Shown here: piece after piece, positions 25,401 through 49,495 of the stretch
Layout of the letters: each line of letters opens with the position of its first letter
Position numbering within the stretch: position 1 is the first letter of the stretch
Assembly (NCBI GenBank): GCA_000934665.2
Contig: JYFJ02000721.1
Coordinates: 62,001 to 112,980, forward strand
DNA from: Catajapyx aquilonaris
Taxonomy: Eukaryota
DNA length: 50,980 nucleotides
Reading direction: 5' to 3'
Position numbers and translations under genes: made by a program
Notes under the pieces: generated by a model
What the model was told of the DNA's origin: nothing
What the model saw: the letters and a program-made list of their open reading frames with translations, nothing else
The model's database searches: none

Positions 25401-27316
25401 TTTATTTCGTTACTAAAGAGGCAGGCTGCATGATTGTCTTACTCGGTTGTCCATATATAATGCCTATTTGCGCCTGTAGAAATAATTTAAAATGTTAATT
25501 ATTTTGATCATATTGGACCCTATGTAAACATAAAACCCACGCAATTCACAATTAAAAATTAATAACTTTTTGAAAATGTTTAAAATGTGGATTGCCTCAG
25601 CTGACCTCGTAAATTTTTAATTTTCAATATTTACACTTTGTTAGTGCATGATTCATGAACATGTTTTCCGCTTCAGGTGTAACTGTTGCGTATATAATAA
25701 TTTATTGATAAATAATATTTTGTGAATACTTGCTGCTTCTACTGCAAACAGTTTTCAACTGCACTATTGATAATATTATTTTGTTTCTAATTTATAATAA
25801 TTTCGTGGGCGTGAAATAAATAGTTCTACCTAGGTCTGACCTATAGGTATTTAATTCCTCATTACTTTGGTTGCAGGTGTTTATAATTGTGTCAGAGTTT
25901 GTAAAGTTACTAAGCTCACCTGAGCCTGTTTTCACCTGACAGAAGTGACGTTTAAAAGTTGTCACAACTAAATTTGACTAATTTATCTAATGAGAATCTT
26001 GCTGCGTCATTTATATGCAACAAGCCATTTCTAAATTTTGCAAACGAAACCTTGAATATATATGATTCAATTCGGTCTACTATAAGCAGCTAATAATTTT
26101 GATAAGCTTAAACCATGAAAATAATTACTCCAAGTAACTGTTTAAAGATAATAATCAGCTTCCCACATTTCATACAACTTAGTATAGCCTACTTAACATG
26201 AATAATTTTGCACTTGTTGGTTCAGGATTATTGTTTCTCATTAAACTGGTTGCTGTGATTATTAAAAATCCAGCGCACGTTCCCTTAGATTATTAGTCAT
26301 GATACTAAAACAATGGACTACGGTACGTTATACAGTTCATACACAACATATTGATTGAAATTGAGGCTGCAGTGAAATTCTCTCTCCTCTGCATAAAAAA
26401 CGTAGGTGTTAACCTATAAGCAGAGGAAATATTCCCTTTCTGCCCTTTCATTCACATGTTAGGTGGAGAAATTTCAATTTCAATATTTATCACTTGGTTT
26501 ACGCTTATGTTAGCTATACTGAAGTGTGCATTTTAAAATTATATTTGACAGGTAGTGTCCATTCAACGTATGCCTTTTAAATGTATTATGCAGCTGAACA
26601 TTAAAGTATGCCTATATTGAAACACGTCTTGGACACATTCTATCATCAATTATCTTCCTGGTGATTGATAGAGTGATATACTCCGTGAATTATGAAGATT
26701 AGTAAGAGTCTGGCTCCTTTTTTTTTGCGTCGGATGTGGCCTGCCCCATCTGGCGTGACAATCGCGAAGATCAATTTTGCACAAAGCTTTGCATGACATC
26801 TACCGTTGGAATATCATGCCATGGATGTAAACCAGGCGCTTAATTTAAACACGGGCTTCAGAGTGCACTACTTTCCTATCGAAATATTAGATGTCTCTGC
26901 CCGTATATTGACAGCCTCAGCTGTAAACTTAAAACATGCCTGAAATAACATGATCTATATAATATGATTATCTCATAAATTTTGCGTATTTTTATTTGGC
27001 TGTTACATGACTGGACCTAATTATTTTGTAACTCCCACGTTACATAGTTACTGATTAGAGAGCAAAACTATCGCTTCCTTCCAGATTCGCGCATTTTTTG
27101 CAGCAGGTCTTCTCTATCCTCCATGTCTCTAGTTAGAGAGAAACCAGATTCCGTGTCTTCGTCCACTGAAAGCAAAAATCGAATGGTTACCAATACCTTG
27201 AACCACACATCGGCATGCCCCACGTCCGTGTTTTTTTTAAAGACAGAATATAGTGAAGTAGAAGGAAGAACGTAACATACTGTACATAACTTGAACTCAG
27301 AAAGGAGGGTAGCTTG

Positions 27317-27322
27317 TTTATT
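27317..27322 (-). terminator. Candidate polyadenylation signal AATAAA of the neuropeptide-precursor gene
   Basis: tttatt on the + strand, about 40 nt past the TGA stop. Confidence 0.45.
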
Positions 27323-27361
27323 ATTTTGGTGAAATTACAGGTGTGTGAAGGTCCTCTGTGT

Positions 27362-27453
27362 TCACTTTCCGTTCTGTCTCATTTTTTCCAACGCATCTTC
27401 CCTACTCTCTTTCTGCTTATTCATGCTAGGCCCGTTCTCCGTGCTATCTCCAA
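27362..27453 (-). CDS. Neuropeptide/peptide-hormone precursor, last coding exon: (V)GDSTENGPSMNKQKESREDALEKMRQNGK*
   Basis: Acceptor ttgatttccag| at 27456-27454, phase 1. Ends in G-K-TGA, the canonical amidation signal. Confidence 0.85.
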
Positions 27454-27586
27454 CTGGAAATCAATGTTTGAAGAAGAAAAAATAATTAAAAATCATAAAT
27501 GTATAACGATGTGAGCAAAAAACACCCAGTCACAAAGGTTCACATTGTCAACTCTTGAATTCTGATTTATTAAAACAATAACTTAC

Positions 27587-27628
27587 CCATTCCTCCCTTC
27601 ACTGGGGCTTCTGCTTCAGGAGGGTCGC
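27587..27628 (-). CDS. Neuropeptide precursor, 42-nt coding exon: (S)DPPEAEAPVKGGM
   Basis: Acceptor atttcgcag| (27631-27629) and donor G|GTAAGT (27586). Phase 1-1, GC-rich relative to flanks, and keeps the frame. Confidence 0.8.
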
Positions 27629-30079
27629 CTGCGAAATATGTATTTAACTAAATAATCACTAAACTAAAAATTAATCCGAAATTAAAATTCGAACCAAAGG
27701 ACTATAGGGTGTGGATTAATTAGTTTGCCTGCTGTAAAACTGAAAATCATAATAAAACTTTGAGCGTGTGAACCAACTTGATACATTTCCAACCACGTTT
27801 TAATTTCATTTTGTTTACAAGAGTAATGGAATTTACTGGTTATGGTTGCAAAGTAAGGAATTCAAATGAAAACCCAATAAGCATTTGTTGTTCAATTATT
27901 CCTATGTTATTCACTGAAGATGCTGATTGTTGGAAATATATTCAACGAGTTAAATGGAAGTTTTGGTGGTACTTTGAATATGCTTGCTCGTAAAGAAAAT
28001 AAGTCACGTTTTACTGATAATTTATTGTACTGACAATACTTTTTTTTCTCTTTTTCACAAAAGGGAATGATGAACATGGATGGAGCTTAAAAGAATGAGA
28101 CGAAACATATTTTTGGCTTTTTGATGCGTGTATATAAATATTACTTTCCGTATTGCCTCATTCTCTCCAAAAGCAGCTCCCTCTCTACCTTATCCTGAGA
28201 CAGACTTCGTCCCGACTCCGTTTTGCTATCAACTGAAAAGGAAACAACACTTTTTAACACTACTTTTTTTAAAAATATTTTCAAACCCATATTCAAAGTA
28301 CCTATTTTGTGTAATGTTGGGGAAATATATATTTTTTTAAAAAAATGACAAGCGAGTTAGGAAGATAGCAGATAGCAGAAAGAGTAAAGAAGAAAGTGTG
28401 CTATCATATTTATTACACCGGTTCAGTGAAATAATTAAGAGTATACAGTACATTGTTAAAAATAGGAAATGTAAGTCGGAAGATAATATTGAGCACGGTT
28501 AACTACTGCACGATTGACATTATTTTTTGGAGGGAATTTACCGAATCGGTCCTAATTTTTGAGAACTATCACATCAAGTTGCGGTGCAGAAAGTTGTGTA
28601 CACGCATTGTGTTTAACGTACGTGACAAAGCATCAAAACATTTTTTTTTTGTTCGCGGTTATTGCCAGGCGGTACATCGCTTTTTTTAAAACTCTCTCTA
28701 TTTTTATGAACGAGCTAATTTTTTTGCTGAAGGTATAGAATTACTTCCTCTTTCCATTCCTTTCCATGAGTTTCATTAGTTCCCTCTGTTTTCTGTCGTC
28801 ATTGATACGCTCAGCGAGGCCCAAACCCACTGGAAGGGAAAAGATAAGCGATCAAGTTTCTCTAAATGTGGAATCACTATATGGTTTTATTAAAAATCCT
28901 AGGAAATCCCAAAATAGCAGCCTTTGTGAAAGATGAGAAATCGTTAACCTCAACTTCCTGCAAGTATGGTGCAATGGCCAAACCTTCAGTTCAAGGTCTG
29001 GAGATAAATGATTTAAATAGAAGAAATCTTGACGTGTCTGTTGCTAGTACTTAAACACGATTTCTGTAATAAACAATCCACTACTTCTCCCTGGGTGGTC
29101 AATGCACCATAATTGTATTTTTAGCACTTGTGTTTTTCATGAATGCAATCGAAATCAGTCACATGTCATGATGCTGGACAGAAGTCTATTTTGTAATAAG
29201 TTTTTACTATACTGGTTTACACATGATTTTGTTGAGTATACAGTATGTTGCTGATATGTTTGAGGAAAGACATTCAACTCCAGAAATCATTGATACGTAG
29301 CTTTTACTATAATATCTGTAGGCGTTAATTGAAGTCAGGAAAAATGTGGCCTTTAACTACTTGCACATCGGGGTCAAAACTTTGCAAGATTTAACAGAAA
29401 TATTTTTTTTAAAGTCTGAGGGGAAATTCTAGGATCATTTGGCGTGTGCAAAAGTAAAAGGAAAAAAATCAAAGCACATACTTTGATAGATCAGAAGTTT
29501 GAAAAGTTAGTTCCGTTATGAAAATTTCAACTTCTAATTGAACTTTCAAGGATGTGTAAATCAGCCATTTGAGGCACGAGAAAAATTATGCGGAAAGACA
29601 TCCATCTCGGGGGGTCCTGCCTCTGATGATGTTACAAAAATTTTGAGTCCTGCATTAATGCATTTCACATTAAACTCGTATCAGCAAAATATCGATATGC
29701 TTGCAATAAAATTGGGGGGCGGAAGTAACAATGCATAACAATGTCTTCCATCACACTCATTCTGTTGAGTTGCAGGTCCTGTATAGGTTGAAGCTTACTC
29801 TTACGTTAAAATGCTTAAAACAATGTAAAATGCTTTTTATCATTTGCATTTTTTGCTGACGTATTGCGATGCATAATTTTGCCATATTCTTACATTCCAT
29901 TGCTTTTATAGGCTGCTTGTATTAATTTACATTACTATCTACAGCGTGGGTTTCTAACTTTTACGTTGCGACAACAAATGACACACCATGTAAAACAACA
30001 TCGAAGCTGATAGGACGTGAGACATAATCCGAATTTTAATTATGGAAAGAAAGCAACAATGTGGACGTGTCGGGTCTGA

Positions 30080-30099
30080 GGGGTAGGGGAGGGGGAGGG
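30080..30099 (+). other. G-quadruplex-type motif GGGGtaGGGGaGGGGGaGGG in intron 3 of the neuropeptide gene
   Basis: Four G-runs of 3 or more with 1-2 nt loops. Confidence 0.5.
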
Positions 30100-30383
30100 C
30101 TTAATTGTTGGAAACATTGTTGGATAATGACTCTTCCAATCATGGCTCTGCTTTGGAACTCTACTGATCGGATAATTTAATGCCTGCTTTGGCCAATAAG
30201 ATTGATTGGGGTGACTTTATGGCATACCGAGCGTCACAGATTTGCAACAAAAAAAATTGGCCGTTTAATTTCAAAACGAGATTATCTTCGCACGCATCCA
30301 GGTCAATTTTAATTCTCGATTTATATGTGGCTGGCTTCAAAAGCTGATAAATATATAGGTCAGTACGGTAAAAACTTAACTAC

Positions 30384-30771
30384 CTCTCTAAATATTTACG
30401 AGTAAAAATTTCACTAAAATATGACCATTTTTGCAAAATGCTTTTTTTTGAGTGAATTTCCCTCTGCAAAAGATTTACTCTAACTCAAATCGAGTGGAAT
30501 ATTACTCGAAAGAAGAGTGAAAATAAGTGAGAGTCTTTCAGTGAGTGAAGTGATTATTTATTCTAATTGAAATGATTACTCATTCTAAGTGAAAATCACT
30601 CATTCTAAGTGAAAATCCCTCATTCTAAGTGAAAATCACTCGTTCTAAGTGAAAATCACTCAAGAGATCTAGTGATTTTCACTCAAAACGAATGGGATTC
30701 AAATCAATTGGCAGAAATTGAGCTAAAATCACTCGAAACGAGTGGAAAAATACTCGAAAATTTTTAGAGTG
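30384..30771 (-). mobile_element. Non-autonomous DNA transposon (MITE), CACTA/EnSpm-like, copy B, in intron 3 of the neuropeptide gene
   Basis: Terminal inverted repeats CTCTCTAAATATTTACGAGTA and (reverse complement of right end) CACTCTAAAAATTTTCGAGTA match at 18/21. Homologous to 20681-20973 in the opposite orientation. Confidence 0.8.
30581..30660 (+). repeat. Four tandem copies of the 20-bp unit cattctaagtgaaaatcact inside MITE copy B
   Basis: Units at 30581, 30601, 30621 and 30641, each with at most 1 mismatch and no spacers. Confidence 0.95.
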
Positions 30772-31193
30772 ATACTTTTGCATAAAGAGCGACTAATTTT
30801 CAACCCTCAGTTTGGTTAGGCAAAAAAAATGCCAATGTGACTTGACAGATTATGCAAGAGAGGAACAGATTTACAGCAAGCATTTCAAGAATCGGATAAA
30901 TCGCTCACTTCTGGGTTACACGTCGTAATTTTGCCAATTTCATGGTTAAAATTTGAGGCTGTCATTGTTATTATTAATTGTTTTGTGCACCACTGTGTAT
31001 TTCACAGTTTCAGCAAGTAGATGGCAGGAGTGACGCTTTGCCCACTCCCGCCATCTGTGGTTTAGTGAACGAACTAGTGACCTGTCCGCAGAAATGAGCA
31101 ACTTTTTCCGCCACAGAATAAAGGAGTTTGGTTAGTAAGCATTGAAGCTACTGGACGCTTCTTCCTCTCACAGGAGAACCCCTCAATACTTAC

Positions 31194-31379
31194 TATATCT
31201 CTTCTGGAACGCGGTTCCAATGGGCGCCATGAAGGGACGCCATCTTGGCTCCAGCTCCAGCTCTCTGTCGGCCATCATTTCGGCTGGAATTGAGCGTCCA
31301 GAATACGCATTGGCCTGTTGCTCCAGGTGATTCCAATACGAAGGGCTCATTCGGATATCGTCTTCCTGACCGAAGGCTG
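31194..31379 (-). CDS. Neuropeptide precursor, coding exon 2: (A)AFGQEDDIRMSPSYWNHLEQQANAYSGRSIPAEMMADRELELEPRWRPFMAPIGTAFQKRY
   Basis: Acceptor ttgcctcgtttcag| (31382-31380) and donor A|GTAAGT (31193). 186 nt, phase 1-1, GC-rich; contains the end of the signal peptide and the KR dibasic site. Confidence 0.88.
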
Positions 31380-31712
31380 CTGAAACGAGGCAAATGTTGA
31401 TCACACAGAATTTTGCGAGCGCGGTTTGGCATTTTAGTTATCCGGATGTGCGAATGACACTTTGGTGACGGGTTTGGGGTAACAGTCTATCGAGTAATTG
31501 TCGCTTGCATTGTGCGGATAATTAATGCTCCATATTTCCGTTATGCTAAGCGGACAGGTGTGGCACAATTTGTTGTGGCCAGTGGCATAACAGTCATCAA
31601 TATTAAACTGACCACTAATGTGGAATATGCAACAGTTAACAGTCAATCTCAAAAAAAATACATCGCACTAATGTGGACATTTTTCTCTTGAAAATTATTG
31701 TAGCTAACTCAC

Positions 31713-31785
31713 CGACAACTGAAAAAATACCCAGGGCGATCAGCAGGATTTTGGTGACTTGTGACGATTTCCACTCGAACTCCAT
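31713..31785 (-). CDS. Neuropeptide precursor, first coding exon (signal peptide) MEFEWKSSQVTKILLIALGIFSVV
   Basis: Exon 31799-31713 with acceptor ttttcccacag| and donor G|GTGAGT. ATG at 31785 (gagATGG). Lysine followed by a hydrophobic core ILLIALGIFSVV, continuing into A-A-F-G in the next exon. Confidence 0.88.
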
Positions 31786-33472
31786 CTCTGATGTGATGCC
31801 TGTGGGAAAAATTAATTTAAAAAAAATTTGGTCAGTGATATGAAGAGCGACCGTGGGGAACCCCAATTACAACGGCTGAAATACCGTATGTTATATGCAA
31901 ATATAGGGTTTTATTTGTGGGAGGCAGCGTTTGAAAACTTTTCTAGCCTTAAGCGAACCCTCGGGATTTGTGCAGTTTTTTTTGCGGATGTGCGATGGAA
32001 ATATAACGCTACAATTAACACTTCTGACGGCACTAAATGATGAACATACAGTATGCTGTAAACATTATTTTGGGGGGGGATAAGCGTCATCAAATATTTT
32101 GACGATTATTTTGAATTTTACAGTACTTTCGGAATAATTGTTTGCTATAGCGTCAATGCTTACAATCGTTAACGTCATAAAGGGCCACTTTACTAAATGC
32201 AGTTTGTGAAAAAAAAAAAAAATTTGATATGTATTTCCTCCATTATCGGCAGGTTTTGTGTCAAAGAATCCTTTGAAGTTTGTGTTAATGAAGGGTTTAG
32301 CTCTCCAATTATCCATGCAGACTAATTTTATAGCTATGTGTTTGATGGTCGCGTGTTTTTTTTGCACAATAGGCGTCAGTCACAATACCTGCGCAAATAT
32401 TGGCGATGCATTGCTTTCAGCTGTCGTCATGAATAAATTCATTTCATTAGATTCTGTGACGCTAAAATCTCGTTACGATTTTTTCGTACTTCATTAAACG
32501 TGAAATGCTACGCCGCGTCGAGATTACTTGGAATATTTTTTCTGCTAGACACGTCTAACCAGATATATCCGCGGCCGTCTAGAGTGTATAGTGATTATCT
32601 AAGAGGTCGTGTGTACATTGAAAGTGTCTCTTATTGGGATCGGGTAAACACCATGCTGCTAAGGTCAGTTGTTGACGCATTCCTCTTTTGCGTAAATAAA
32701 AATACTTGAAATCTTGCCAACCTCTGATAACTTATAATATTTCGGAGAATTTGTAGCAAACATTTTTATTACTGCTTGTGCGTAATTAAACATATAAAAA
32801 GACGTTTACTTATGGGCTTGATTGACGTCGAAAATATTGTGACATTTTCCAGTACCCTTCCAGTCCTACTAGTTAAACGCAAGATGGACATGCCATTACA
32901 AATGAACAATGTCATAATAATGGCATAAGTACATAATTATGTAGGAACCATTATAACAGTTGAAGGCAATGCAAAAGCAGCATGCAACAATAATTTTAGA
33001 TGTTCACACAGCATTTCATAATAATATTCTGGCAATGTAATCCATAGATTTTAAAATATCTACACTACATAATGTGCATCATTTGGCACAAGGCCACATA
33101 CCATTGATAGTCTCATAGTTCAAGAAGCCACAATACGTCTTAATATTATGAGTTGCATCCCTCTCATTATTTCAATCAAAATAAAAAATTCCTCCAGCAT
33201 ACTTGAAAAAGCTTCACTTCACATAGCTCATTCACTTCATAAGAAAAAAATTTCAACTTCTTCACGTGACTCTAGTGGACAATGCCAGTAATTTATTTAT
33301 GTAACAAGTAGCCTACTGTAAAACATGCTGTAAACCATACGTATTTGCATGCACCGCCTAAACTTCAAGTTTTATTTTAAAAAATAATATTGACTCAAAG
33401 CATTATTGAAGTGGAAGAATGGTTCGACGGAGAGAAGACCTTTTGCATAAGATCCAATTAAAAGTGACATAC

Positions 33473-33560
33473 CTGTGATCTGATGAGAATACCTCGCACA
33501 CAATACTGCTGATAGGGAAGCAGGACACGAAATGTTCTCGCTCCGGGGTCTACTCTCATT
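33473..33560 (-). other. Putative non-coding first exon of the neuropeptide-precursor gene
   Basis: Begins about 30 nt below TATATAT and ends at donor CAG|GTATGT (33472). The TSS position is approximate. Confidence 0.55.
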
Positions 33561-33581
33561 TTTATCTTTTTCGCGGGCTAA

Positions 33582-33797
33582 AATATATAGTCCTGTTGCT
33601 CTAGCCCACCCACCCACTCTTTCGCATGCAAAATGTTAACACCCCTCCTCCTCCTCCACCCCTCCTCCCTTCCCCTCCCCCGCACGAGGGTGGCTCTTTT
33701 TTTTTTTTTTCATCCTCCCACTTTGCTTATTGGACGTTTTAGCGTTGAGATCTGCCTTACCATTGGCAGAGCTTGATTTTCCCTCCCTGATGACGCA
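33582..33797 (-). promoter_or_regulatory. Promoter of the neuropeptide gene: TATA-like box, G-rich tract (G4/Sp-KLF-like) and CRE/AP-1-like TGCGTCA
   Basis: TATATATT at 33589-33582, GGGGGaGGGGaaGGGaggaGGGG at 33681-33659, and TGACGCA at 33791-33797. Confidence 0.5.

Positions 33798-34057: not shown

Positions 34058-34138
<81 letters not shown>
34058..34138 (+). repeat. (ATT)27 microsatellite
   Basis: 81-nt perfect trinucleotide run; explains the poly-I and poly-L ORFs in the track. Confidence 0.98.
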
Positions 34139-34140
<2 letters not shown>

Positions 34141-36374
34141 AGGGTTACGACTTTTGCATCCTTTACCCGAAATGCTTGGGACCGGAACCGGAACACGATA
34201 TTCATGTACAATACTGCGTATTTCTTATGGTGAGTTATACGTACATTAGCCATGGAGGTATTCGTTTAATAATTTTAATAATTTTTCATGCATACAGATA
34301 CAGATAATTATACTAGTTATATGGTCTACTCACATGGAATTTTGTGTTTTTTTTTTTGGCGCTTCATGTCAGCACTAAAATGCTTTCGGATTTTAGAATT
34401 TCGGATAAATGATTCTCAAACTGTATTATTATTTCCATTTCGCTGGATTGTTCAGAGTAATCGTCGGTAATCGTTGAATAATTTGCACTGCGTGGATTGC
34501 GTATGTCAGTAGGCCTATATATACGAGGTATATGACGAGTATATGGAGTGAAATTTGCAAAGTGTATGAGCTGCATAATTTATTATACTAGTTACGTCAA
34601 GTCTGACCTTGTGTAATTTAGAAATGTGTTTTAAGTGATATTTGAACATGTGAATTATTAAATTTCAGACCTGTCTTTATTTGCTCTTGTGCTGGGCTTA
34701 TAGGCTGCTGAATTTTATTAGAGTTGTTAGGTGTATAGTGCAGCGGTTTAGATAGTTTTACTCAGTGGGTCAACCATTTCTAAATTCACATTATTATTAC
34801 AGTATTACTAATAAATCACTTGCACATTAATAGTTCCCGTAAAAAAGGGCAGCTTCTTTTTGAAACTCTGAGTTGAAGTATCGTGTCCATCAATGTTAGT
34901 TTCAAGGAGAAATAATTGCAAATCATATAGAGGTCATTAATATCATGCGTATATTGTCAAGCGCACTGTAAAAATGATGTCACCACCTTTCCCCGATCAG
35001 CTCAAAAAGTTGATTAAGTGTGACGTTACTCAATCTTCCAGAGAGATGAAGCTGTAGTATAGATTAATCGTTCACACTTCGTTGCGTGTCATTTTATCTG
35101 CTGAGTTTAGCTGTCAATTTATTGCTTCACGCATATTCCATTGGCCTTGGATTTAACCAGTTCAACAAACGAATCATCTAAACACGTGATGTGATGCCAC
35201 CTACAATAACCTTAATATCTCAATGGATACGAATTTTCGACTTTGTACACTTCCTAGTAAAATCTGTATACTATCTGTATGCTGTCCTAGATAAATTGTA
35301 AATTAACAATATGATAAGGCGTCATTTTTAAGAAAACATGTAATACGTAATAAGGCAAATATTTTCTCAGAAAATAATTCTTATTCCGTGTTGCTAATAT
35401 TTGTTATTATTTTATGGACATACGAAATGACTCATTGACTGAATTTTAAAAAAGGAGAAGAGTCGACGTAAAATCTATATGATTTACACCGCCGTGACCT
35501 AATTTTTAATCGGCTTATGGTTACATTAAGCCCCCATTTAATACGAATTAACTATTCCATTTGCCCATTTTAAATGACTTGTCCTCCGCACACGTGCATT
35601 AAATCTGTCTGCTGTGACTAATGAAATTTTCATCCTCGTCTATAGGAGTTGATATTACGCATTCTATATACCGTTATAACGACGAACCAGCGTTTGTGGT
35701 GGACGTCAAGCGTCATAAAGTTGAAAAGAAGATGAAAAGTCAGCCAACCGTCACGTTACGGAGTGATCAGGCGTACTCATTTGCATGGCTAAGAAGTACC
35801 TAAGTGATTGAGAAGAATGCGAGGAAGGAAATAACTTTCTGCTACTTTCAGGCCGGCCTGGAATTTAGAGTGCGTGGGCTGTTGTTTGAAAAATGAATTT
35901 ACATGTATCATAGGAAAAGGATTTGCTTAACGAAGAATGCGAAGGATAACGAGTTTCTTTTTGTTGTTAAAAATGGCGACAAAATGCCACTGAACTTTTT
36001 ACTATAACATTACCATGTAGTCTTGTACGTGCTTCACTCACAAAGATATTGGCTCATAATAATTGTATCGATGTGTCACCTTGGTCGAGTTTATCAGCTA
36101 TCAAGCATGATGTATCACCATATTTTCGATTGCCTTCTTTTCAAGACAAACAGAATATTAACATCAAAGTTCATTTAATATAAGCTTTTTTTTCTGTTAT
36201 CTCGTGCTGTGATTTTGTGTATGGCCCATCTAATGGGAAATGGGAGCCCCCAGTTCTTATTATGTGTACCAGAGGATCGAGTGTTCATTTTGTCGAAGCC
36301 TGCTCGTAATAATCTTTGTTTGCCAATGAGGTTCGGCGCAAATAGGGTTGTTATGGCATGGATAGACCAGCAAG

Positions 36375-36424
36375 TGCGCATGCGTGGCGTGGGTTAAGCG
36401 GCGTGGGTAAGTGTCGCCATTTTG
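36375..36424. promoter_or_regulatory. Cluster of promoter-type motifs (NRF1-like, 2x EGR/KLF-like, YY1-like)
   Basis: TGCGCATGCG at 36375-36384, GGCGTGGGT at 36386 and 36400, and CGCCATTTTG at 36415-36424. Confidence 0.4.
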
Positions 36425-39400
36425 TGGGGAGTTGTGGAGGCGAAAACAATAAGCCCCTCTCTATTAATCATCCATTACAGGGGCAATTTGTGGCTGTGGT
36501 ACTTGCATGCTGATGGGCTTTAGAGTCGTGATCTTTATGGTAATTGCCTGGGCTATTGCGTGGGTTTCAGCTCAATAGGTTGGGTTCTTGAAAAGTTGAA
36601 AGGGCCACATTTCTGCCGACCTTAGACAAAAAGGCGTAACTGCAATTTATGCAATAGAGTCGAGTATTTCTTGCCAGGCTCAATCAAATTACTGATTTAG
36701 TATAGCATAAATCTCTAAAATGGATAAAAATTAAAGAGTCCAAAGAGCAAAGCTCGATCGTAGGCTACTGCATATTCTAGTTGCATAATTTTTCCAAAGG
36801 GCTCCTGCGGTATCGAAGTTCCCTAGGCCAATATATTAATTTGCAAAGAATGGTTTTGTCCCTTTTTTATTGGGACTGCAAGTATAGTCGTGAGAAATCT
36901 ACAGAACTCTAATATTATAAGGAATTTGGTCTAATCTGTCTATCATTGTATTGTATACCTACAGCTAGTACATTCTTCCTTCCGGCTGAATATTTATTAG
37001 AACATTTATTAGGGTCGCTCTGTATTGTTGTAGAAACGTTGGGTAGGCTCTCTCGGTTCGCCACCTTGAATCACAGTCATCCTTAGAATCACAGATGGGA
37101 ACAGTATTTTCAAATTGCGCTACTGATAAGTTAGCAGTAACTAGCAGTGGGACGAAAATTCCACCCAATGTATTATATGAAGAAGTCAAATCTCTTCTCA
37201 TTTCAGCACATCGATATGAAAGTTATTTTGGGTTTGCGTGGGGATATCAGCAGTAGTAAGAACTACGCAAGTAATCTGATCTATAAGAGCTAAAGAATAA
37301 TTGCACATTCAATAAATTGTCAAAACAAAATAATATAACCTTGGACAACCATGGACAACCCACAAAAATTAAAATCTTGGGAAACGTGACAATGTGTGCA
37401 ATATGTTAAGAGCCATTACGTTTCCTAATCATACGTAAGTACCCTGCGACCTAACCCTCAAGGTAATAATTATGCTCATTATCGGAGTAATAATATGCTC
37501 AGATATACCGTATTCCTTTGCTTTCTGTCTCTTCATAAGCTTTTAACCATCGATAAATGACAGAGCCATTTGGCCTTTTTGGAATGCACCTCCTAAAATA
37601 AAAATAACAGGCCAGTGTCAGATCGCGTCAGAAGTGACCATGCCATAAAAAGACTAAAATTTGATTATATTGATTACTAACGTAAAAGGTAAACGTGCGC
37701 TTCGTTGAGAATGCTTTTATGCGTCAATATTGTGCTGGCTTTTTTTATTAACTGGGGCGTCAGATGCGGGTTCCGCATATGAGACCTTTTTTGCCAAATG
37801 GGTCAATTGCAAATTGTTTCGCATGCCGGATTCCAACTACAGAAGTATGGTGTGTGACTAAAGCCTGGAAATAAATAAACCCATTTTTTTAAAAAAAATG
37901 TCTCTACTTGACATGGACTAAGGTTGCTTCTGGCCTTGCAATCTCAAGGTCTTAATCCAGTTATTCATATTCAAATACGAGAATCCTTTTAAGTCTTCGC
38001 CGTTAACAGCTTATTATCTTCCATTCGTATGCATGCAAATACCTCTCGGTCGTAATCAAGGCTTTAAAATCCTGGCCACTTAATTCAGCCGATGAGTTGG
38101 CGTCGTGTAAGGACGCGTCTGTGCGTAATATTCTACTAATAATTTTTTTTAGTAAATTACTTAATGTTACATGGTTGTACATTTTGGTATAGCTTCGATT
38201 GACCTGTCCAAACTTGCTGGTTATTGCCAGCCAAATAATTCCTGTCATAAACAGACCAACAGTCATTGCATAATACATAACATTGAATTAATTTGTTTAA
38301 CATTCAGCTGACATGGTTTTAGGCCTTGCCAGGGGGATAAAATTCATGTTTTATCTGAACTGGAACATTGCTGTCCAAGTATATTCTTACGAAAAATAAT
38401 GTGAAACAGGAAACTGTTTACCTCAAAATCTCGGTGAGCGACAATTCCATGCAACCGGATTCATCGCCGGTGTAACAGTGAAAAGGTCAATCAATTCATG
38501 TCGCAACAAATCTATATACCATCCGGCGGCAGAAGTTTTTACTAACACTGATATGTCACCGCAAAGTTTGTTCACGTGTCTCTCATAGATATATCATATA
38601 GGTGGGAGGAATGCTTGTTTATACATCAAAACCTGAAAAATTATTCAGAGTCACAAACAATTTTTTTTTTCAATTTACTCGTTCGTTACATGTGACTGAG
38701 TGATGTCAGAATTTTGTGGCCGAATGATTGTGTAATAAGCCTTATAGTACGTAGTTTATTTGATTACATAAGACGCCAACAACTCATATAGAAACGCATA
38801 TAATGGGCCCAATATATTGCAGTTGAGATAAATTATTTCAAGACTGTTATAAAAGTGTTGACTTAGTTGAAATGCTTTTCACAGACTACTTAATTTGTTG
38901 TCCATTCGAAATCCTTTTGGGGACAGGTTACATTTAAAAATATCTCTATTTATCTAGACCTGACATTTGCAAAGTGCATCACTGCACTGTAATGCGACGC
39001 ATAAGCGGGATCCCAAAATCATGTGCAAGGTTTAAAATATAGTTAAGCGAGATAATTTACAGCCGAAAATCTGCGTGGAGAATCCTGGAATTTTATTGAC
39101 CGTGTGTATATGTTCACATTTATTACATACACTATAAATACGGATCAATACACAATATTTTCGGATGTTTCCTGCTTCAGAATAGACACAGTTTTTAACA
39201 CAACATTTCCCATAAAATCTTATGTGGGAGTATAGGTAAAGATGAACTCACCAAAATCAACGAGGGCAACTATTTTGACTATTAAGACCGTACTACGCAC
39301 CTTTCTACTGCTCTGAATGCAGCATGTCGACAATACAAAAGATTCTTACGAACTAAACATTCTTAATTTTTTGCTAAGCCTCCTCCATCATCCTTTGTTT

Positions 39401-42400
39401 GTGACTTTGACATCATTTTTTTTTGCTCTTTCCTCTCTATTGCATCTCTGTGTTCTGTGTATACACTATATCATTAATACCTTACATAAGTTAATTAAAT
39501 TCTGTTTTGTCTCCTGCTTACGATCCTACTATACTGCATTGTTGTGTGTTCTACAGAAACTCGCGAGATCAGTAGACTATAAGCATATATACACAGTGAA
39601 AGCTTCCCCCTGTATATAATATTATTTTGTCCTCGATTTTTATGCAAATTTAGTTTGGGAAAACTTGTAGTTATGCAAATTAAGAATGCCTGTTGATCCC
39701 ATTGTTTTGCTTCTGATTGTCTTAATAATATTTCTGATATCGAAACTACTTATAGTGCAGGTGTAACTGGATAGTGAATCGATATGGTACATTTTTACAT
39801 GATAGTATATATCAAAATACTTGTCCTGTCTGGACTCTTCACTTGAAAATAAAACATTTTAAAATTCCATCACAAGTCATCAGTGTTTTACTTCGGTCCA
39901 TATATTTTTTAAATAAGACTTAAATTTCTTTCATGCATTTTATTTGCCATTTTTGTGCATAAATTATTGCACGGTGACGTCAGAATGGCATAGTAATATT
40001 TTTACATCATCAAGCAGGACCACGGATATTTTAACGGCATTGAAAATTACACGGAAGAGGATTATTGGAGATGTGTCATTTATTATCCTATTATCTTATC
40101 TCACTCGTCAGTGAGGAAAAAAAAGCTGCTTTTCTCTGCCAGCAGGGACTATAATGTTTACGAATTGCACGATCCCTAATTGGCCAGAGATGAACACAAG
40201 CATAGTGCCATAAAGTTCAACATCGACCCACTTTTTTCAGTGTGTTAGTGTTTAAAGGAAATACAGTGCTGCTTTTGTGATTTTAAAAATTGATGCCATG
40301 TCACACGTTTTGTACAGTCATACCATGGATGTATAGTAGTATAGAGTATTGACAGTTTGTGCAAATATGACCTATAATATTATTCTCATTGCACTGCAAA
40401 AATGCGACTTCCCGCAGTTTCGCATGTTATGAAATGCGAACCAATACATATTGGCATGAAATCGTTTGCCAATTTTGCTTCGGTTGCAACATGTTGCAAC
40501 ATGTTACAAGAAAAAATAATATTCCGTGATACTTTTTTTCCCCTTGAGCTGACAAGACCGCACAACATACTTTTGCGCTACTCTGGTATATAACATCCTA
40601 TACATCATATTTAATATAAGGTCAGACCCCCCGTCGTGTACAGCAATGGCGTTATTCGAATATCAATTTCCGGTCGACTCTTCACTTTCTCAGAATATAC
40701 TCTGCGCTTGTGTTCTCTTACTGCTGGGGGGAGCCAAGGTAATCAAATCTCGAATTTTGAAAGGCTGTTCTATAGGTCAACCCCCTCTTCTTTCTTACTC
40801 AAGTTTCATTTTTGGCACTAAAAATATAGTATCTATTTTTTTGCATGAAAATCAGCATTTGCGAGCAGTCATCAGAAGAGATACGTCACATTAACTTCCT
40901 ATTTAAAGATCGCACAAGGCCTATATATAGGAAATGTTTCGTCAACCAAAAGGCTGTTTCTTTGAGGTTAAAGTCCTTTAGAGCTCTCATCCAATGGCCA
41001 ACTTTTCCTATGACTACTGAAGAGGATAGTATTCTAAAAGAAAGTTCATGACATCTTAAAACTCAAAGAAAATATGGCAAAAAATAACCGTCACAGAAAT
41101 ATGCAGCAGGTAGGAAAAAATGCATTACATTTTGGGGGTGAATATACTCCCTTCACTTACCTTAACGCAATGTAAATTGCGATAACTTATATTAAACTGA
41201 ATTTATTAGCAGTTATGGGACGACATCAAAAGTGAAACTACAGTAGTATAGGTAGACAGCATACAGAAAAGCACGACGTCCTTCGTCAAGTATTTCTTTT
41301 TGCAATATCAGCTTAGACAATTTTACCTCGATGAATGCTAAAAGTACTCGTATATAGGTACTTGTCAAAATTGAAACCTAATCTTCGCATAAATAAGATG
41401 CCTTAAAAGTCGAAGCACTTCTTTCAGCGAATATTTCAATTTGATGCAACCTAATGCGATTAGGTTTACTCTAAAATCAGGAAAAAAGGCAATCGTATCC
41501 AACAGCAAAATTAATATTAAGTTTTTGTGGACTTTTCAAATATGTCATATACCGTAGCCTACTGCAGGTCGATAATAAGGGAACTCCTCTTCCTATATTA
41601 ATTTGTCATGGAAACCAGCGGCCATGGTATATATTGCCAGTGTAGTCCCCCTCTCTTATTGCCCATTACCTTTTTTTCTCACTTGATAATTACTGAGGAA
41701 GTAACATAGGACACGTACAGTACAGTACCGTATGTGTATATTACGGCATGCAAAGCAATTCAAAGTTTATTGCACTGGTACTGAACTATTTGCAGCTTCA
41801 TCAAATATTTATCCATCCAGTAAAATTAATATTATACTACATTGAATTATATTGAATGCAGGTTGAATAACAGTCATTGAACTGAATGTAACATAATACG
41901 GCAGTGCAATTGACTTGAATCGACAGAGTTGTCCAAATAATTGAGTCAATTATGCAATTATTAATAATAATCAAACTGCACCAATTATTGAATTATTTCC
42001 ATCACTTGTCCTGTTGTTAACTGTGTACTGTTCTTCCTTCTTACTATAACATAGTACAATAAAATTCCCGTTGTTACAAGTAGATGTCAGGTATGGCAAC
42101 GCGAAAATTTCGCACAGAAGGTAGAACTTCGCCAAAATTTAACAGATGGCAGAAACATCGTACAAACCCTCGCAGATCGATACGCCCGTATTAGATCCCC
42201 CCTTTCTCTATAGCTCTGAGCTCACAATAACGAAGCATTTAATTCACTCAATAATTCCCCCCCCCCCTCCCCCGCATTACCTTAATTTCTCATGCAAATT
42301 GATATCCCATCCCCATGTCCTTGTGAAACGCCTTGTTCAAAATGAACTCTCCAGATTCCCATATCAGGAAATGGATATAGTTCAAGAGGATGATCTTTCC

Positions 42401-43794
42401 CCTGTGCCATCAGCTGCATTTGACAATTTTCCGATACATCTCCCGGATTATTTCCGTGGGAAAATCCATGCTTCGTTATAATATTCAGTTCATAACTTGC
42501 CCTCCAAGTAACCGTTGGGACAATTAATGCGTCGCATAGAATTTGAGAGTGATAGGTGTACAAAGGGCTCGTGTCCCATACAATCTGCCGGATTCCAGTG
42601 GAAAAAAAAGCGGAGGCGACTGAAGAGCACTTTTTTTTTGGACCCATTTTTTTTTTGTGGTCACTAGTTTTTACCTCAGTGGTTGCGTGCCATAATTAAA
42701 GTGCCCGGTGCAGCTGGTCACCCTCGAAAAGCGGGCTCAAAGTGAGTTGTAAATCGCGCTTTTTGGAATTAAAGGTAGGATTATTTTTTTTAGTGAAAAT
42801 TTTATCAATATGAGAGCTGGCGCGAAGGCTAAATTGACACCGCTCGAAAAAATCAACGAATTTTTAATTGCACTATATTTTCCAATGCGCAGCATAATAT
42901 TGATCATATAAATGTATTGTGGGCATACACTCATCGTTTAGACGAATGTTGGAGATTTAGCAACAAAAAAAAATTGTCGATAAAGTTTTTGAATTTTTCA
43001 GATCTGAGAGCTTGAGAATTTTCAGGTGCGATGGATGGTATACTAAATTAGGAAATTTTTACTCCTGGTGGGCGAAAATCTGTCACCGAAAGTGCCTGAA
43101 CTTTTGAAAATGTTGGAGCAAAACTAATGGCTTCTTTTGGCACAGTTTTTTTCCGGATCGGTAAAACATACGATAAACTACTGATGAAATTGGCAATTTC
43201 AATATTTTTGACTATAAAAAGCATAGTATACAACCTATAGGATGATTATGACGGAATTAAAATGATTTTGACCTTAACCTCGTCGACTTCATTATCGCAG
43301 ACGCCTAAGAGTCGTAAAAAATTTCGCAAAAATTTTCGCGTGGGCGGTGCAAGATGGGCAGGTTGGTCCAACCAGTCGCGAATAATTCGAATTAGTAAAA
43401 GCGGAGATCCGGACGTCGTCGGAAGGTTCACGGCCACAAAATCCGCGAGCATTTCGACGCAACAGCTGGTGTCATTTCTACTCGACGTGATTTTATCCCA
43501 CCCCGGATTGCCAAGTTCTCTGGCCGAATAAACTTCACATCTATTTTGCTGCGTCATTACCAGTTTCTGACAGCAAAAAATATGAGGAGAACAATCTTGG
43601 ATGTCAGAATGTATTACGTCATAAATTTCAATAGTTGGGTCACTCGATCCTAAATTTTTGAGGGGATAATGTCTATCAAAAATTACTTTATTCGCCTAGA
43701 TAGAGTGCTGATAATTTTTCGACATAAAGTTACAAGAGAGTAGCAGTGTCTAATTTATTTTGTTTAATTGCCTGAGGTTGTGCTGATTCGATTT

Positions 43795-44145
43795 TCACGT
43801 ACTGTAAACCTCTTTGCGACGGTATGTGTGGGATGAATGCGTCTTTGTCACTCGGAATTTGTTCTCTTTGATACGTTTCGACTGACTCTTCTGCCGGAGC
43901 TTAAGGTTTGACCTTCTGTGTTTGCACAATCCGCATTCCACGCCTTCATTCACGTGTACAGTACTTCCAAGCAAAATCCTTTTTTCACTACAAGGTTGGA
44001 AGAATTTTTCCGATTTCAATTTTGCGTGGATTCTTTCCCACTGTCCAGGTTTGTTCAGACCTGAAATATTAATTGTTTAAAAACTTATTTTGTTAGCAGG
44101 TACCGGTGGAACTGATTTTTCTATACACTTAAACTTACTGTACAT
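43795..44145 (-). CDS. Putative 2-exon, 90-aa basic protein with a CxxC motif (exons 44145-44139 and 44060-43795)
   Basis: aaaATG TAC A|GTAAGT, a 78-nt intron, then tatttcag|GT CTG open for 87 codons to TGA. Translation: MYSLNKPGQWERIHAKLKSEKFFQPCSEKRILLGSTVHVNEGVECGLCKHRRSNLKLRQKSQSKRIKENKFRVTKTHSSHTYRRKEVYST. Confidence 0.4.
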
Positions 44146-47100
44146 TTTCCACAACTTGCGTGTTGTGCAGCGTAGAAAAGTTTCTTTTCAACTAGAAGGT
44201 GCATGAATAATATTGGATAACTTTTACATAAATTCCTTTAGGGCATCTGTATATACAGCAAGCTCCCTCGTCTGCTTCTCTGAAAACGTAACACTCGCAC
44301 AATCTTCTCCGTGTAATAAAACCTTGCTTGAACATGACCTTTAAAATGCTGTGAACTCCTTTACTTTTACGATAACAAATAATAATAGTGTCAATTACAT
44401 TCACTCTGTAAAAATGAGAACGTATAGTCATGTAAGTTACTGTACACGAGAAATTTACGAAGTTGTATTATGAAATTGCGAAATAATTGTTCCAACAGTT
44501 TTGCAACTAATATTTTCGTATCATTACAAGTTCAACATTGCAATTCCAGACTGTGTATAACTGTACTTTTCTGACGCACATCTTCCCGCATCGTACTGTA
44601 TACTAAAGTGTTGGGTGTTATGTACTCAACATGCCCGTACGTATAACAGGCTGCTAACACATCACCGTAACAAACGCTTTGTTTATCCTGTAGCAGTTCA
44701 CGGTCACCGGAACGACTCTTCCGTTATTTGCAAGGATAATCGGACAGGCAGGATTATATACCCCTCCGGTTTATCCGGGCTTCTCACAGCAAGGGCCCGT
44801 ACAATTTTGCTCGTGTTTGAAGAGGAGGCTAACTTTCATCATGTCGCTTTTTACTGTGGGTATGCTAATGGTTGTCTCCTTTACAAAACAGGTAGGCAGC
44901 AAAATTATGTATTACATGCAAGCAGATAATGCTGTTGTTATTGATGCAAATTGAGTATTTTTTTTTCTAAACATTTGGTGTCGTATTCAGCCTTTTAGCT
45001 CTCATATTCCCTGGATATGGCTGCTAATTTTTCATGGGCGGGCTTATGAAATTTTGCAACTCTTCGGAAGCTGTTAATTATTGAAAGACTTAAATGCAAC
45101 GTTTGGGCACTTCCCATTGATTTCATTTGTGGTGTTCCCACATATCTGCCTCCGACGCGACGTTCCCCAAAGGCAAAAACTATAGTTCTGTTGCAAATTT
45201 TTAGCTGCTTAAACCATCACAGTCATATGTATACTTTATTATCCTTTATTACTGGTACTTTCCCAATGTATTTCGCATACTAGTGTCCATCGCATCATAG
45301 TGACCTTGGCCTTAAATCAGAAGACAGTCCATTAGCAGAATTCCCATCTGGATCTATAGACCGAAAGTGGACTGGACATCCGGACTCTGTCTCCGGAACT
45401 AATTTGATTCCAGTTCCCTACAGATGAAAGGGTGCTTCCCAATCTGTTCATGGAAAGTCAGACGAGGTTGAATAACATGGGCCTGTTTTGTGCGAGCCCA
45501 AATATGCAAAAAAATTCGGCCATAATTCGCTTGCCAATACCCCCGCTGCTTACAATGAGTGTGCCTTTAATAAAAAATTCGGAGTTACTGATTTCAGCAG
45601 CGAGGCATTATCCGAAGCTCCTGTAATTGAAACCAACTTATGGCGAGATTGGCAAATTTACTCACGACGGAGCAGTGTTGGTGTAGCTGTTTCAATCAAG
45701 GCCACACTCTGATTATAGGTGATTAGAGACAAAGGTTGTTTCGGTCTAATAAGGTAGTCGTAATCCAGTCGAAACAGGGCGCTAATTAGTCATGGTCTGA
45801 CGATGAAAAAACGCCGCGTTATGTCAGCTGGTGTGCATGAAAAATATTGCAAATTATAGCACATGTTGCATGAAATCAAATTAAGGAAAATCTACAATTA
45901 TAATTATGACAATACATAATCCGAGATTTCCTTTCTAATTTGTGTTGATTATTTTGGTTAACCTTAAAGTAATTTACAATTACGCATAGTACACAGTGAT
46001 CAACATTTACTGAAACGGAGATGATCAGTACATGATGTAATTTATTTCATTAAATTTATTCAATGTACACCATGATCTGGCTGACTATTTAACCCGAAAA
46101 CTGTTTCCCCAAAAACCTCTAATAGGAGTTTGGCCTCAATAAAAGGGATTGAAAGGCATAGATCACTGTGACATCCGCACAGATCCCTTGATAAGCCGAA
46201 AAGTACCAGTACTTGATCATACTAATTACTCAAAATGAGCTTTTGATGAAAGGCCATCTATGCAAATGTTTTTACCTGAGTTATTGTTGATTCCGTTCAA
46301 AAGAACTGATAGGTTTTTCAGGGTCAAAATTAGACTAATAGCTATCGCAGTGATTAATTATCAATCAAATCCGCCTCTTTTTATATTTGAAATCGACGCC
46401 TCGATTGGCAAGTCGAAATCCGTCGTCATCATTATCACAGTTCGATTTTCCTCCAATCCCAATCTCATTTTGCGCCCAGGAAATGGAGTAGAGGAGTCTG
46501 CCGAACCGAAATCGCAAAAAAATTGCATAAAATGCGCTCTTCTTTTTTTGTGTGTCCTATACCCTTTTCCCCCCGATAAATGATCACAACAACCTGATGA
46601 ACGTTCAACTTTAAGCGATGATCCAACTCGCGAATCTTGTTATCACAAATTCAGTTTCATTTCAGGTCTAGCTTTTGCATAAGTCGCATTTCATTTGGAA
46701 TTGAAGTGCAAGGGTGTCTTCAACAGTATTGAATTACATTGTCATTATTATGGAGTCGTATTAAGTGAAATGAGTTTTTTTTTTTTTGGTAAGATCAATC
46801 CAAAAAATGTAAGCACACTTTTAGACTGAGCTTCTTTGCTGTATGTGGTCCTATTTTTCATGCTTTCAGTTAGGTTCTGAGATCCTTTCGAGACACTTGA
46901 CACTTTTATTTGAAAACGAATGGTATAAGTCCGATACCCCCGACTGACCAAGAATGTGATTTATAGTATTTTCCAGCACCAGCAGAAAGTTTTAGCCATC
47001 AGCTGTCTTCTTAAAAACATGGGTTCAATTTTATAGCGTATAGTGAAAAGTTCTGACCTCGATTTCAAAATCTATTCAAAGCAATGAGTATGTTAGTCTT

Positions 47101-48912
47101 AAAACTTGCTTTGTGCATGACGTAAGCAGTTGTTGCTATCGGTTGCAATTTTTTTTCCATTACTGGTTTCATTTCCTGACATATGATCGTTCAGCTAACG
47201 AGTTATTCCAAACTGATGCAACAGATTACAAGAACTTATAGATTATGTCTCAACTTTCGCTGTGTATAACAAACGACCTCGTTGATTATTTTAAGCTAGA
47301 TGTTAAGAGGCGCCTTAATTTAAACACTTGCTGAAATTGTTCAGACTGGTTACTGTAATTCACGTCACACCATTTTTTACCGTATTCATATTTCATGCGG
47401 TGCTCTCAGAATGTAAAGCCTGGCTAAAATCCTGAAAATGCAAATTTGCGGGCAGATTTCAATCGGCAGTGAATATTGCATGAGAAAAGCATATGGCGAT
47501 AGTAGCGATTGACGTCCGTTCAAGCCCGAAATTTAACCAGAAAAAAATATTACGGAGTGTAAAAGGAAGGCGGGATCTGGCCGTTTGATATAGGTGTAAT
47601 CAATTACACAGCTTTAGTTTAGATCAGTGATTTTTTTTTTAAACACGGGGGCGGCAGATAAACGAAAGGCTGATAACTTTTTTTTCTTCTGAATTTAAAA
47701 AAAAGGTAACCTCGCCTTTTCCTTTGCCAAGAAATGGTTTTCCTGGAAGCTCTCTCCTAAGACATTGAGATCAAAGAGATGGATCAAACGTCACGCTTGT
47801 GACAAAGACGAGCACCCATTTTCGATCCAGATGGCAAGCCTTAGGCCAAATTGGGAGTCAAGTGTATATGACGAATCGTCTGTTCTGTTGATACGAGTAA
47901 TTGGATATTATCTCGGTTTTTTTTTAAATAAATTTGCGGCGAAATCGGTTTTTTTTTGTGTGTACGCGAATTTGCGGAGAGTCTTCCTTTGGAAGCAAAT
48001 AAAGGAATTGAGTGTTTTTTTTCTTACGGAGATAAAATCTAGTGGGTGAGAAACCTTAATCACGGTGAATCTCATTGATTGCATCTTGTCGAGCTTCCGA
48101 ATTGAGACTTTAGTGTTTCCAGACGTGTCCCAGAGGAGAAGTTTACGGTCCATTACAAGGCTTCTGCAACACTTCGAACGAAAACGGATTGGCTTCTTTA
48201 ATAGTGCGGCTCAAATCCAAATCTTATTAATTGTGTTGCCCGCACCACTGGAGAAGTTTCTGAAAAAAATATTGTTTTAACATTTTTGCGTGCAGGATCT
48301 ATCGAATATTTTGGTATACCAAGTAAAGTGATTATACGATTTTGGTGCTGGACCAAAAATGATGTTTGGGAAGGTTAAAATGGGATTTACTCTGAACGGG
48401 GACGTTTCAGGAGTAAGAAAATGTCATTTTCCTACCAGAAATTCAAAAACCTTTGACCCTGCTGTGCTATTTCTGTCTCGAAGAGTTCGTCTTAGAAAAT
48501 TGCTTGATAACATTTTTTGTTGACAAAAAAATATGCAAATATTAAGTATACGCCATTCAATCGAGCGATATGGTATACAGTTCTCTTACAAGGCTGCAAA
48601 GATATAAAATGATAATAATGTTTCCTTTTTGATGCAAGTATGTTACAACTGTGAATATTCTCTCTGTGATCTTTTCCCTTTGTGCGCTATAACTATATAA
48701 GACTAACAGTATATTAATTTTTTTCCGAATTTCTTCCATGCCTTTGATCCTATTTTCATCTGCGTATTCATCCCTCTACATGCTGACTATTTTTACTCAC
48801 ACTGTGCTGACAATGCGAAGTATAATTTTCCTGGTAATTTATTTTTTGGGGGGTCATACGCATGTTTACGCATGGACTACATACCTGTAATTGATACAGA
48901 TAATACTGTAAG

Positions 48913-49495
48913 TAGAGAACGGATTTCTAGGTTTTGTCCTACTTTTTATTCTCCAGTAAAAACACCGATACCAAAGTATCTATCCGTTTCATCATAACAC
49001 AAGGAGCTCACAGATCGTAGTTTGATAGAAACTGAAATTGCCTATTTTGAACATTGGGACCTACATGGCATATTAGCGCCTATTTGCACCTATTTCCGCC
49101 TTTTTTATGCTGCTTTTTGAATGGAAGATTTTCTGAGAATTTTGCGGGGTTTCCGTTCAAGAAATCCCCCTCCCACTTCAACCTGTGAAGGTCGAAGAAT
49201 CCGTAAGTATGCCAGACGTAGAAGACATTTGACTTTTTCATATGATCCAGTTAAATGTCATTTTCAGTGTATAAAGATATATTTTCAGACAGCCGATTAA
49301 TTGCCATTAACCAATGACAATATGGAACAACTGTTACTTTATTACTGTGCTACAAAATTCCATGGCAAATCGAGTGCGTTGTAATATTGCATATAGGAAT
49401 AGGACCTGCTTGATTTTTAGTGCCTATTTTTAATAGCCTATTTTGACTGGCCGTTTTCAGGGCCTAAATGCCTACCTATTTGAGGGTTTTTAATA
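48913..49495. repeat. Possible degenerate DNA-transposon relic with clustered (G)CCTA(T/A)(T/A)T motifs near both ends
   Basis: Starts tagagaacggatttctagg. gcctattt/cctattt/gcctaaat recur at about 49040-49095 and 49421-49481. The ends are not convincingly paired. Confidence 0.3.

Follow-up and report, generated by a model that had tools for sequence, protein, structure and literature searches.

In the calcitonin/CGRP gene, the choice of a 3' exon is coupled to polyadenylation, and different amidated hormones are made from a common N-terminal precursor part. The vertebrate CRH, urocortin and urotensin-I precursors are small and contain just one amidated peptide, of about 40 residues, at their extreme C-terminus, before a Gly-Lys-stop end. 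To date, the known cases in which hormones diversified through duplicated terminal exons and a linked choice of poly(A) site are chiefly calcitonin/CGRP and a small number of diuretic-hormone genes of insects. In beetles, the CRF-like DH37/DH47 gene is described as joining its first coding exon, which encodes the signal peptide and part of the precursor, to either of two duplicated last exons (one of three in Aethina); these arose by exon duplication, and each encodes an entire amidated hormone together with its cleavage sites (PMC6585902). The same study describes a DH31 gene whose alternative peptides lack a well-defined consensus (PMC6585902). For the amphioxus PACAP/glucagon-like gene, peptide exons are described that are used alternatively, so that transcripts differ in peptide-coding potential (PMC9049855). 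The present analysis concerns a gene in a 50,980-nucleotide (nt) stretch of the Catajapyx aquilonaris genome (contig JYFJ02000721.1, positions 62,001 to 112,980 of the forward strand), referred to as the window, to which all coordinates below refer. A multi-exon gene was found on the minus strand between 33560 and 27068; it probably encodes a secreted prepropeptide and, through alternative 3' terminal exons, several amidated peptides.

The gene consists of a 5' non-coding exon, an ATG exon that is presumed to encode a signal peptide, a second coding exon (exon 2), an optional mini exon and four look-alike terminal exons, T1 to T4. In combining a signal-peptide exon with duplicated alternative last exons, each coding for an amidated peptide, it resembles beetle DH37/DH47 (PMC6585902). 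It differs from the beetle gene in having four endings and an extra shared exon, in the placement of the Lys-Arg (K-R) cleavage site in this shared exon, and, in consequence, in a splice junction located within the mature peptide, behind residue 1. The succession of a signal-peptide exon, a shared exon and alternative last exons is that of the beetle DH31 (calcitonin-like) gene in the same study (PMC6585902). Among 1.84 billion representative proteins nothing matched exon 2 at E<=0.001, so that it is not the conserved DH31-gene exon, and a six-frame motif scan of the 51-kb window found no DH31-type exon (peptide ending in Pro-amide) on the strand of the gene. With calcitonin/CGRP the gene would share a 3' exon choice coupled to polyadenylation, but there the two endings look unrelated and carry a disulfide ring, whereas here the four endings are paralogous and Cys-free. 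From the vertebrate CRH, urocortin and urotensin-I precursors it is set apart by the absence of a sequence match, by its alternative terminal exons and by a 'DPP' start that needs the predicted mini exon. An identity as PACAP/GCG was rejected, since in the amphioxus gene internal exons are swapped and the first and last are shared (PMC9049855), whereas here the last exons alternate; nor was any secretin-family Pfam match obtained for the present gene.

Sequencing data accompanying the stretch comprised five runs from two studies, none of them recorded as RNA. Run X5 (kind not recorded) was compared with X1, a DNA run of the same organism, and, judged by its spliced contigs, appears to behave as RNA. 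The 5' non-coding exon, the ATG exon and exon 2 were confirmed by a single 345-nt X5 contig, which bridges 33473/31799 (1673 nt skipped) and 31713/31376. The skipped stretches have CT..AC ends on the plus strand, equal to GT..AG on the minus strand, and X1 covers the whole region colinearly without either joint. Three splice borders were observed directly, and the reading frame is intact across all observed joints.

The original prediction had joined four coding exons of this gene into a precursor of 130 amino acids (aa). Minus-strand joining of 31785-31713, 31379-31194, 27628-27587 and 27453-27362 reproduced that frame exactly, with a consensus GT donor and a polypyrimidine-AG acceptor at every border and donors resembling GT(A/G)AGT. 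Its first two junctions recur in X5, except that the exon 2 acceptor used there is 3 nt farther downstream than the one predicted; the two downstream junctions are not among the joints listed.

The observed part of the 5' non-coding exon (33473..33547, minus strand) contains no ATG and ends at the donor CAG/GTATGT of the joint 33473/31799. The ATG exon (31713..31799, minus strand), both borders of which are bridged by the X5 contig, ends in phase 1 (G/GTGAGT); from it come the n-region and the hydrophobic core of what is presumed to be a signal peptide. Its start codon, 31785-31783, is the first ATG of the observed transcript and has a purine (G) at -3 and G at +4. Exon 2 (31194..31379, minus strand) encodes the end of the presumed signal peptide (A-F-G/Q) and a Cys-free propeptide of about 55 aa, ending in ...F-Q-K-R-Y plus one base; it likewise ends in phase 1 (A/GTAAGT), and the contig that enters it through the joint 31713/31376 ends at 31194, its last base. 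The acceptor of exon 2 is a tandem CAGCAG (NAGNAG, window 31376-31381), of which the X5 contig uses the downstream AG (31376) and the earlier model 31379. Use of the downstream AG removes one Ala, which gives 129 aa for the T3 isoform with the mini exon; the residue lost is one of two Ala before F-G/Q, shortly before the presumed cleavage site. The 42-nt mini exon (27587..27628, minus strand; acceptor TTTCGCAG/, donor G/GTAAGT) is predicted from its splice sites and runs from phase 1 to phase 1, so that the frame is kept with or without it. Upstream, a TATA-like element, TATATATTTT (33580..33589, minus strand), was read from the sequence about 30 nt upstream of the transcript start proposed earlier (near 33560) and may act as the promoter.

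T3 was the last exon of the earlier model. It proved to be one of four similar terminal exons that lie within 1.8 kb on one strand; the linear chain of exons proposed originally is borne out in part but had missed three further homologous endings, two of which (T1 and T2) sit within its 'intron 2'. T1 (exon 28396..28829, coding part 28829-28741) has a phase-1 acceptor at 28829, ends in ...MERN-GKRK-stop (stop 28743-28741) and carries AATAAA at 28414-28409 in its 3' untranslated region. T2 (28232-28141) has a phase-1 acceptor and ends in ...MRQY-GK-stop, with AATAAA 115 nt past the stop (28026). T3 (exon 27312..27453, coding part 27453-27362) ends in ...MRQN-GK-stop (stop 27364-27362), with AATAAA at 27322-27317. 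T4 (27165-27068), which lies 197 nt past the T3 stop, has a phase-1 acceptor and ends in ...MRES-GRKR-stop, with AATAAA 72 nt past the stop (26996). All four are read on the minus strand; T2 and T4 are predicted from paralogy (that of T2 being with T3 and T4) and from coding-type conservation.

The four endings follow the common pattern M-x-x-x-Gly-(Lys/Arg)1-3-stop, and their shared phase-1 acceptor means that each can be joined in frame to the phase-1 donors of exon 2 and of the mini exon. Each has an AATAAA 40-327 nt past its stop, which is modest support at a window mean of 2.3 AATAAA/ATTAAA per kb; the X5 contigs over T1 and T3 stop 13 nt and 5 nt past theirs. Translated on both strands, the 51-kb window yields just 15 frames in which 22 or more open codons lead up to Gly-(K/R)1-3-stop; T1 to T4 account for four of them. 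A Gly-Lys-stop frame at about 26876 (minus strand) was considered as a fifth ending and dismissed: its only acceptor is in phase 0 and leads to an immediate stop after the phase-1 donors, and the frame lies beyond the AATAAA of T4.

Two of the endings are covered by X5. Contig 27312-27453 starts precisely at the predicted acceptor of T3; for T1, contigs 28396-28812 and 28783-28829 together span the acceptor end, the coding part and about 345 nt beyond the stop. The second of these T1 contigs stops precisely at the acceptor and contains 29 further letters that were not placed on this stretch. Together with the stop of the main contig at the end of exon 2, these letters are what would be expected of a splice branch in a 31-mer assembly graph. 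Two unspliced X5 contigs of low depth, 27599-27964 and 28783-29680, were also present. The former stops at 27599, 30 nt into the mini exon, and is the sole reach into that exon, which is unbridged among the joints listed for X5. The positions at which contigs stop and start (the end of exon 2, the acceptors and the mini exon) are consistent with, but not proof of, a splice-graph branch and separate poly(A) sites; contigs cannot show RNA ends, and per-contig depths cannot rank isoforms. T2, T4 and most introns have no X5 cover, which says nothing about their use. At window 28813, A>T was recorded in one X5 contig (depth 4.79 of 28.2), namely on the unspliced contig; the change is at the third base of a T1 Ala codon and is thus silent.

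T2, T3 and T4 match one another in tblastn within the window at 46-54% protein identity, with E values of 1e-5 to 1e-6. Their identity by codon position is 0.55-0.66 at positions 1 and 2 and 0.34-0.45 at position 3, and Nei-Gojobori counts gave a pS of 0.80-0.94 (saturated) against a pN of 0.33-0.39. Over the flanking 87-89 nt, identity falls to 0.21-0.40, which equals background, and DNA similarity is confined between acceptor and stop. T2, T3 and T4 thus stem from old duplications and have been kept as protein by purifying selection: saturated pS, lower pN and flanks that can no longer be aligned argue that they were retained as coding sequence, including the acceptor phase, the Gly-basic end and the stop. 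T1 is tied to them by position, splice phase and its R-E...M...G-basic end, and has direct X5 contig cover. Aligned together, the four endings share R17, E18, M24 and G28 without exception; Gly28, followed by Lys or Arg, is thus present in all four endings despite the saturated silent sites. Within exon 2, a stretch at 31249-31302 (minus strand; SGRS...DRELELE) can be aligned with T2 over 18 residues at 50% (E 1.3 in the search of the window); it could be the degenerate remnant of a fifth peptide unit, or a chance likeness.

At the N-terminus, a polar n-region of 12 residues is followed by a hydrophobic core of about 15 residues (Kyte-Doolittle 9-residue maximum 3.23, residues 13-21), and small residues precede the proposed cleavage, with A at -3 and G at -1 (A-F-G/Q-E-D-D). 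These features fit a cleavable signal peptide. The shared part has one dibasic site, the K-R at the end of exon 2, which is followed by Tyr; T1 and T4 have further basic residues at their ends, G-K-R-K and G-R-K-R. Between 24 and 27 residues precede the Gly of the endings. The layout of an amidated precursor set out in the original prediction is thus well supported by the hydrophobic N-terminus, the A-x-G, the single K-R and a Gly-basic-stop that is kept in four paralogous terminal exons. A small signal-anchored membrane protein, or a chance ORF (open reading frame) in a non-coding transcript, would be in keeping with the long n-region of 12 residues and its net charge near zero, and the signal peptide was here judged from hydropathy and residue pattern alone. 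However, the hydrophobic stretch is just about 15 residues long and runs into A-x-G/Q-E-D-D, the frame is kept over all observed joints, and the codon-position pattern of T2 to T4, with pN well below pS, indicates selection on protein. Chance is excluded by the spliced contig taken with the coding-type conservation among paralogous exons, and the membrane-or-chance explanation as a whole is hardly credible.

By analogy with the established prohormone pathway, secretion, cleavage, amidation and signalling would be expected of a prepropeptide of this kind. Transcription would start near 33560, just downstream of the TATA-like element, and the non-coding exon, the signal-peptide exon and exon 2 would be common to all transcripts. 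The phase-1 donor of exon 2 would then be spliced to one of T1 to T4, in the case of T3 and T4 possibly by way of the in-frame 42-nt mini exon. With its own stop and its own AATAAA in each terminal exon, the choice of ending would be coupled to the choice of poly(A) site. Signal peptidase is predicted to cut after A-F-G, and a prohormone convertase after the single K-R at the end of exon 2; the C-terminal Lys and Arg residues would be trimmed by carboxypeptidase E, and the exposed Gly converted to the amide by peptidylglycine alpha-amidating monooxygenase. The output would be differing hydrophilic peptides that start with Tyr and have the common core R-E-x-(x)-L-x-x-M-x-x-x-amide, about 26-29 residues long on a direct join of exon 2 to a terminal exon and 43 residues long with the mini exon before T3. 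The intron interrupts the codon that follows the Tyr, and the exon chosen would thus determine the second residue of the peptide set free. The peptides would probably act as extracellular signals at one or more receptors.

The single mature product of 43 aa proposed originally therefore gives way to several peptides of about 26-43 residues from four endings and an optional mini exon, and the junctions needed for the 43-mer were not seen. The same applies to the 'xDPP' and 'Y-S-D' starts that had suggested kinship with known hormones: they are present only with the predicted mini exon and are absent from the other isoforms.

Several results weigh against a prepropeptide gene with alternative amidated endings. 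The run that carries the spliced contig is not recorded as RNA. Among the joints listed, none leads from exon 2 or the mini exon to a terminal exon. T1 is just 21-27% identical to T2, T3 and T4, so that its homology is drawn mainly from position, splice phase and end. No relative of any part of the gene was found in the databases searched. The peptides are strongly hydrophilic and show little amphipathicity (over the final 14 residues, the hydrophobic moment is 0.21-0.25 in T2 to T4 and 0.61 in T1), with net charges of +1, 0, -1 and -6, the last being that of T4. Such hydrophilicity is unlike that of typical helical ligands of class-B receptors and is compatible with inert acidic spacer peptides.

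The last point bears on an explanation in which the shared propeptide of about 55 aa in exon 2 is the functional product and the endings are tails without a signalling role. Exon 2 is constitutive, as such a product would be, and the endings are hydrophilic and spacer-like. Inert tails, however, would be expected to lose the amidation signal, whereas the Gly-basic-stop and the R-E...M core are conserved in four old duplicates, and exon 2 is as devoid of relatives as the endings. A functional propeptide with inert tails was accordingly judged very unlikely, and the amidated endings were retained as the probable products.

Homology searches were performed with exon 2 and with the endings. For exon 2 (60 aa), phmmer against 1.84 billion representative proteins, a library built from about 15 billion predicted proteins, gave no match at E<=0.001, and a word-indexed search of longer proteins gave one candidate, with none at E<=1. 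Protein searches with the ORFs containing T2 (residues 32-71) and T4 (residues 49-88) gave one candidate, with none at E<=10, and no candidate, respectively, and the ESM Atlas held nothing usable for exon 2 or T4. As exon 2 did not even find itself, the gene appears to be absent from current protein sets. Peptide strings taken letter for letter from the exons were found in none of the papers that can be searched; figures and supplements fall outside such a search, so that unpublished status is not implied. Peptides of about 30 residues are below the power of the homology searches used, and propeptides evolve fast; that no family was found is thus not proof of a new one. An undescribed, possibly lineage-restricted family of signalling peptides, in which four terminal-exon cassettes under one promoter yield at least four Tyr-started amidated peptides with a shared R-E..L..M core, is put forward here as a tentative proposal, for which the odds are below even.

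Rapid evolution, lineage restriction (no relatives were found here) and exon-cassette diversification are common among gland, venom, defence and pheromone peptides. A non-neuroendocrine secreted precursor of that kind, processed by the same convertase and amidation machinery, would have the identical layout of signal peptide, propeptide, K-R and Gly-basic end. The peptides, however, are neutral to strongly acidic, Cys-free and barely amphipathic, unlike cationic membrane-active or disulfide-rich toxins, and the endings are old paralogues under purifying rather than diversifying selection, with pN well below pS. A role of this kind is distinctly unlikely, and an extracellular signal remains the preferred function.

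A resemblance to CRH/urotensin/DH44 precursors, and to the secretin superfamily at the N-terminus, had been suggested originally; neither was borne out. In hmmscan against Pfam at E<=10, exon 2 and T1 to T4 had no match to the CRF (PF00473), secretin-family (PF00123) or calcitonin families, although the HMMER filters may miss very weak ones. A match of T3 to DUF6366 (E 0.15) was far below the cut-off of that family and was taken as chance. A profile of the four endings, searched against 177,635 distinct PDB sequences at E<=10, found no CRF, urocortin or other class-B ligand chain; its only two matches, spectrin and a viral portal, both had E>1 and were set aside as chance. The secretin-family N-terminal motif is H/Y-x-D-x-x-F-T, and no isoform has Phe at position 6. 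CRF-type peptides have about 40 residues and an amphipathic C-terminal half; the endings are short, and the longest isoform is hydrophilic too.

Nevertheless, the endings could be very divergent and shortened members of the superfamily of CRH, insect DH44 and molluscan egg-laying hormone, acting on a class-B receptor, which would refine the signalling-peptide interpretation. Vertebrate CRH precursors, too, have a Gly-Lys-stop end. The gene layout equals that of beetle DH37/DH47 (PMC6585902). When T2 is set by eye beside Tribolium DH47 (bioRxiv 10.1101/2020.11.19.389874), 'ESG-x-SLS', a 4-residue gap and 'D-x-[VL]-x-R-x-LLLE-x-x-R' can be read in common, with 'PSM' in T3 and 'FSL' in T4 at the corresponding place. 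This likeness, however, requires a gap that deletes the hydrophobic 'IVN-L' core, and 'ESG' falls in the variable N-terminal extension of DH47 and is absent from locust DH (PMC3061863). In addition, nothing in the endings corresponds to the C-terminal half of CRF-type peptides, some 20 residues, and their amphipathicity is low; the endings are shorter than the beetle hormones and without a CRF signature, and the Pfam and PDB searches above, each at E<=10, found no CRF match for any ending and no class-B ligand match for the four-ending profile. Membership of this superfamily is unlikely.

If the peptides are bioactive, they would provide a set of orphan ligands with which receptors of an invertebrate could be deorphanised, and the gene would be a clean natural case of hormone diversification through terminal-exon duplication coupled to poly(A) choice. 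Were they to form a new family, each peptide might suit a different receptor or tissue, with splicing writing residue 2 of the hormone. For annotation, the locus illustrates that gene models consisting of a single linear chain can conceal alternative endings within their 'introns'.

The window is AT-rich eukaryotic DNA, with a GC content of 0.34-0.44 in 2-kb steps. No tRNA and no Rfam match was found in it. Of its 179 stop-to-stop ORFs with a length of 62 aa or more, 119 were scanned against Pfam (the others being the shortest ones and those that overlap the gene or the microsatellite), and none reached a curated cut-off. No recognisable gene was found in 1-25000 or 34500-50980, where the best Pfam matches were DUF4470 (E 0.0042), RPA_interact_N (E 0.0076) and FAM194 (E 0.041). 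The large intron of the peptide gene contains a high-copy repeat at 30445-30780, where X1 depth is 354-816 against about 34 elsewhere and many joints are rearranged; it is probably a dispersed repeat or mobile element, and includes a 20-nt tandem array at 30544-30662 of about 5 copies with 87-90% matches. At or just upstream of the presumed transcript start there is a minus-strand ATG (33559-33557) which, if transcribed, would open an upstream ORF overlapping the main ATG out of frame. Farther upstream, a long C/T-rich tract followed by a T run occupies 33640-33715, and a perfect (ATT)27 microsatellite lies at 34058-34139, about 500 nt upstream of the presumed start of the gene.

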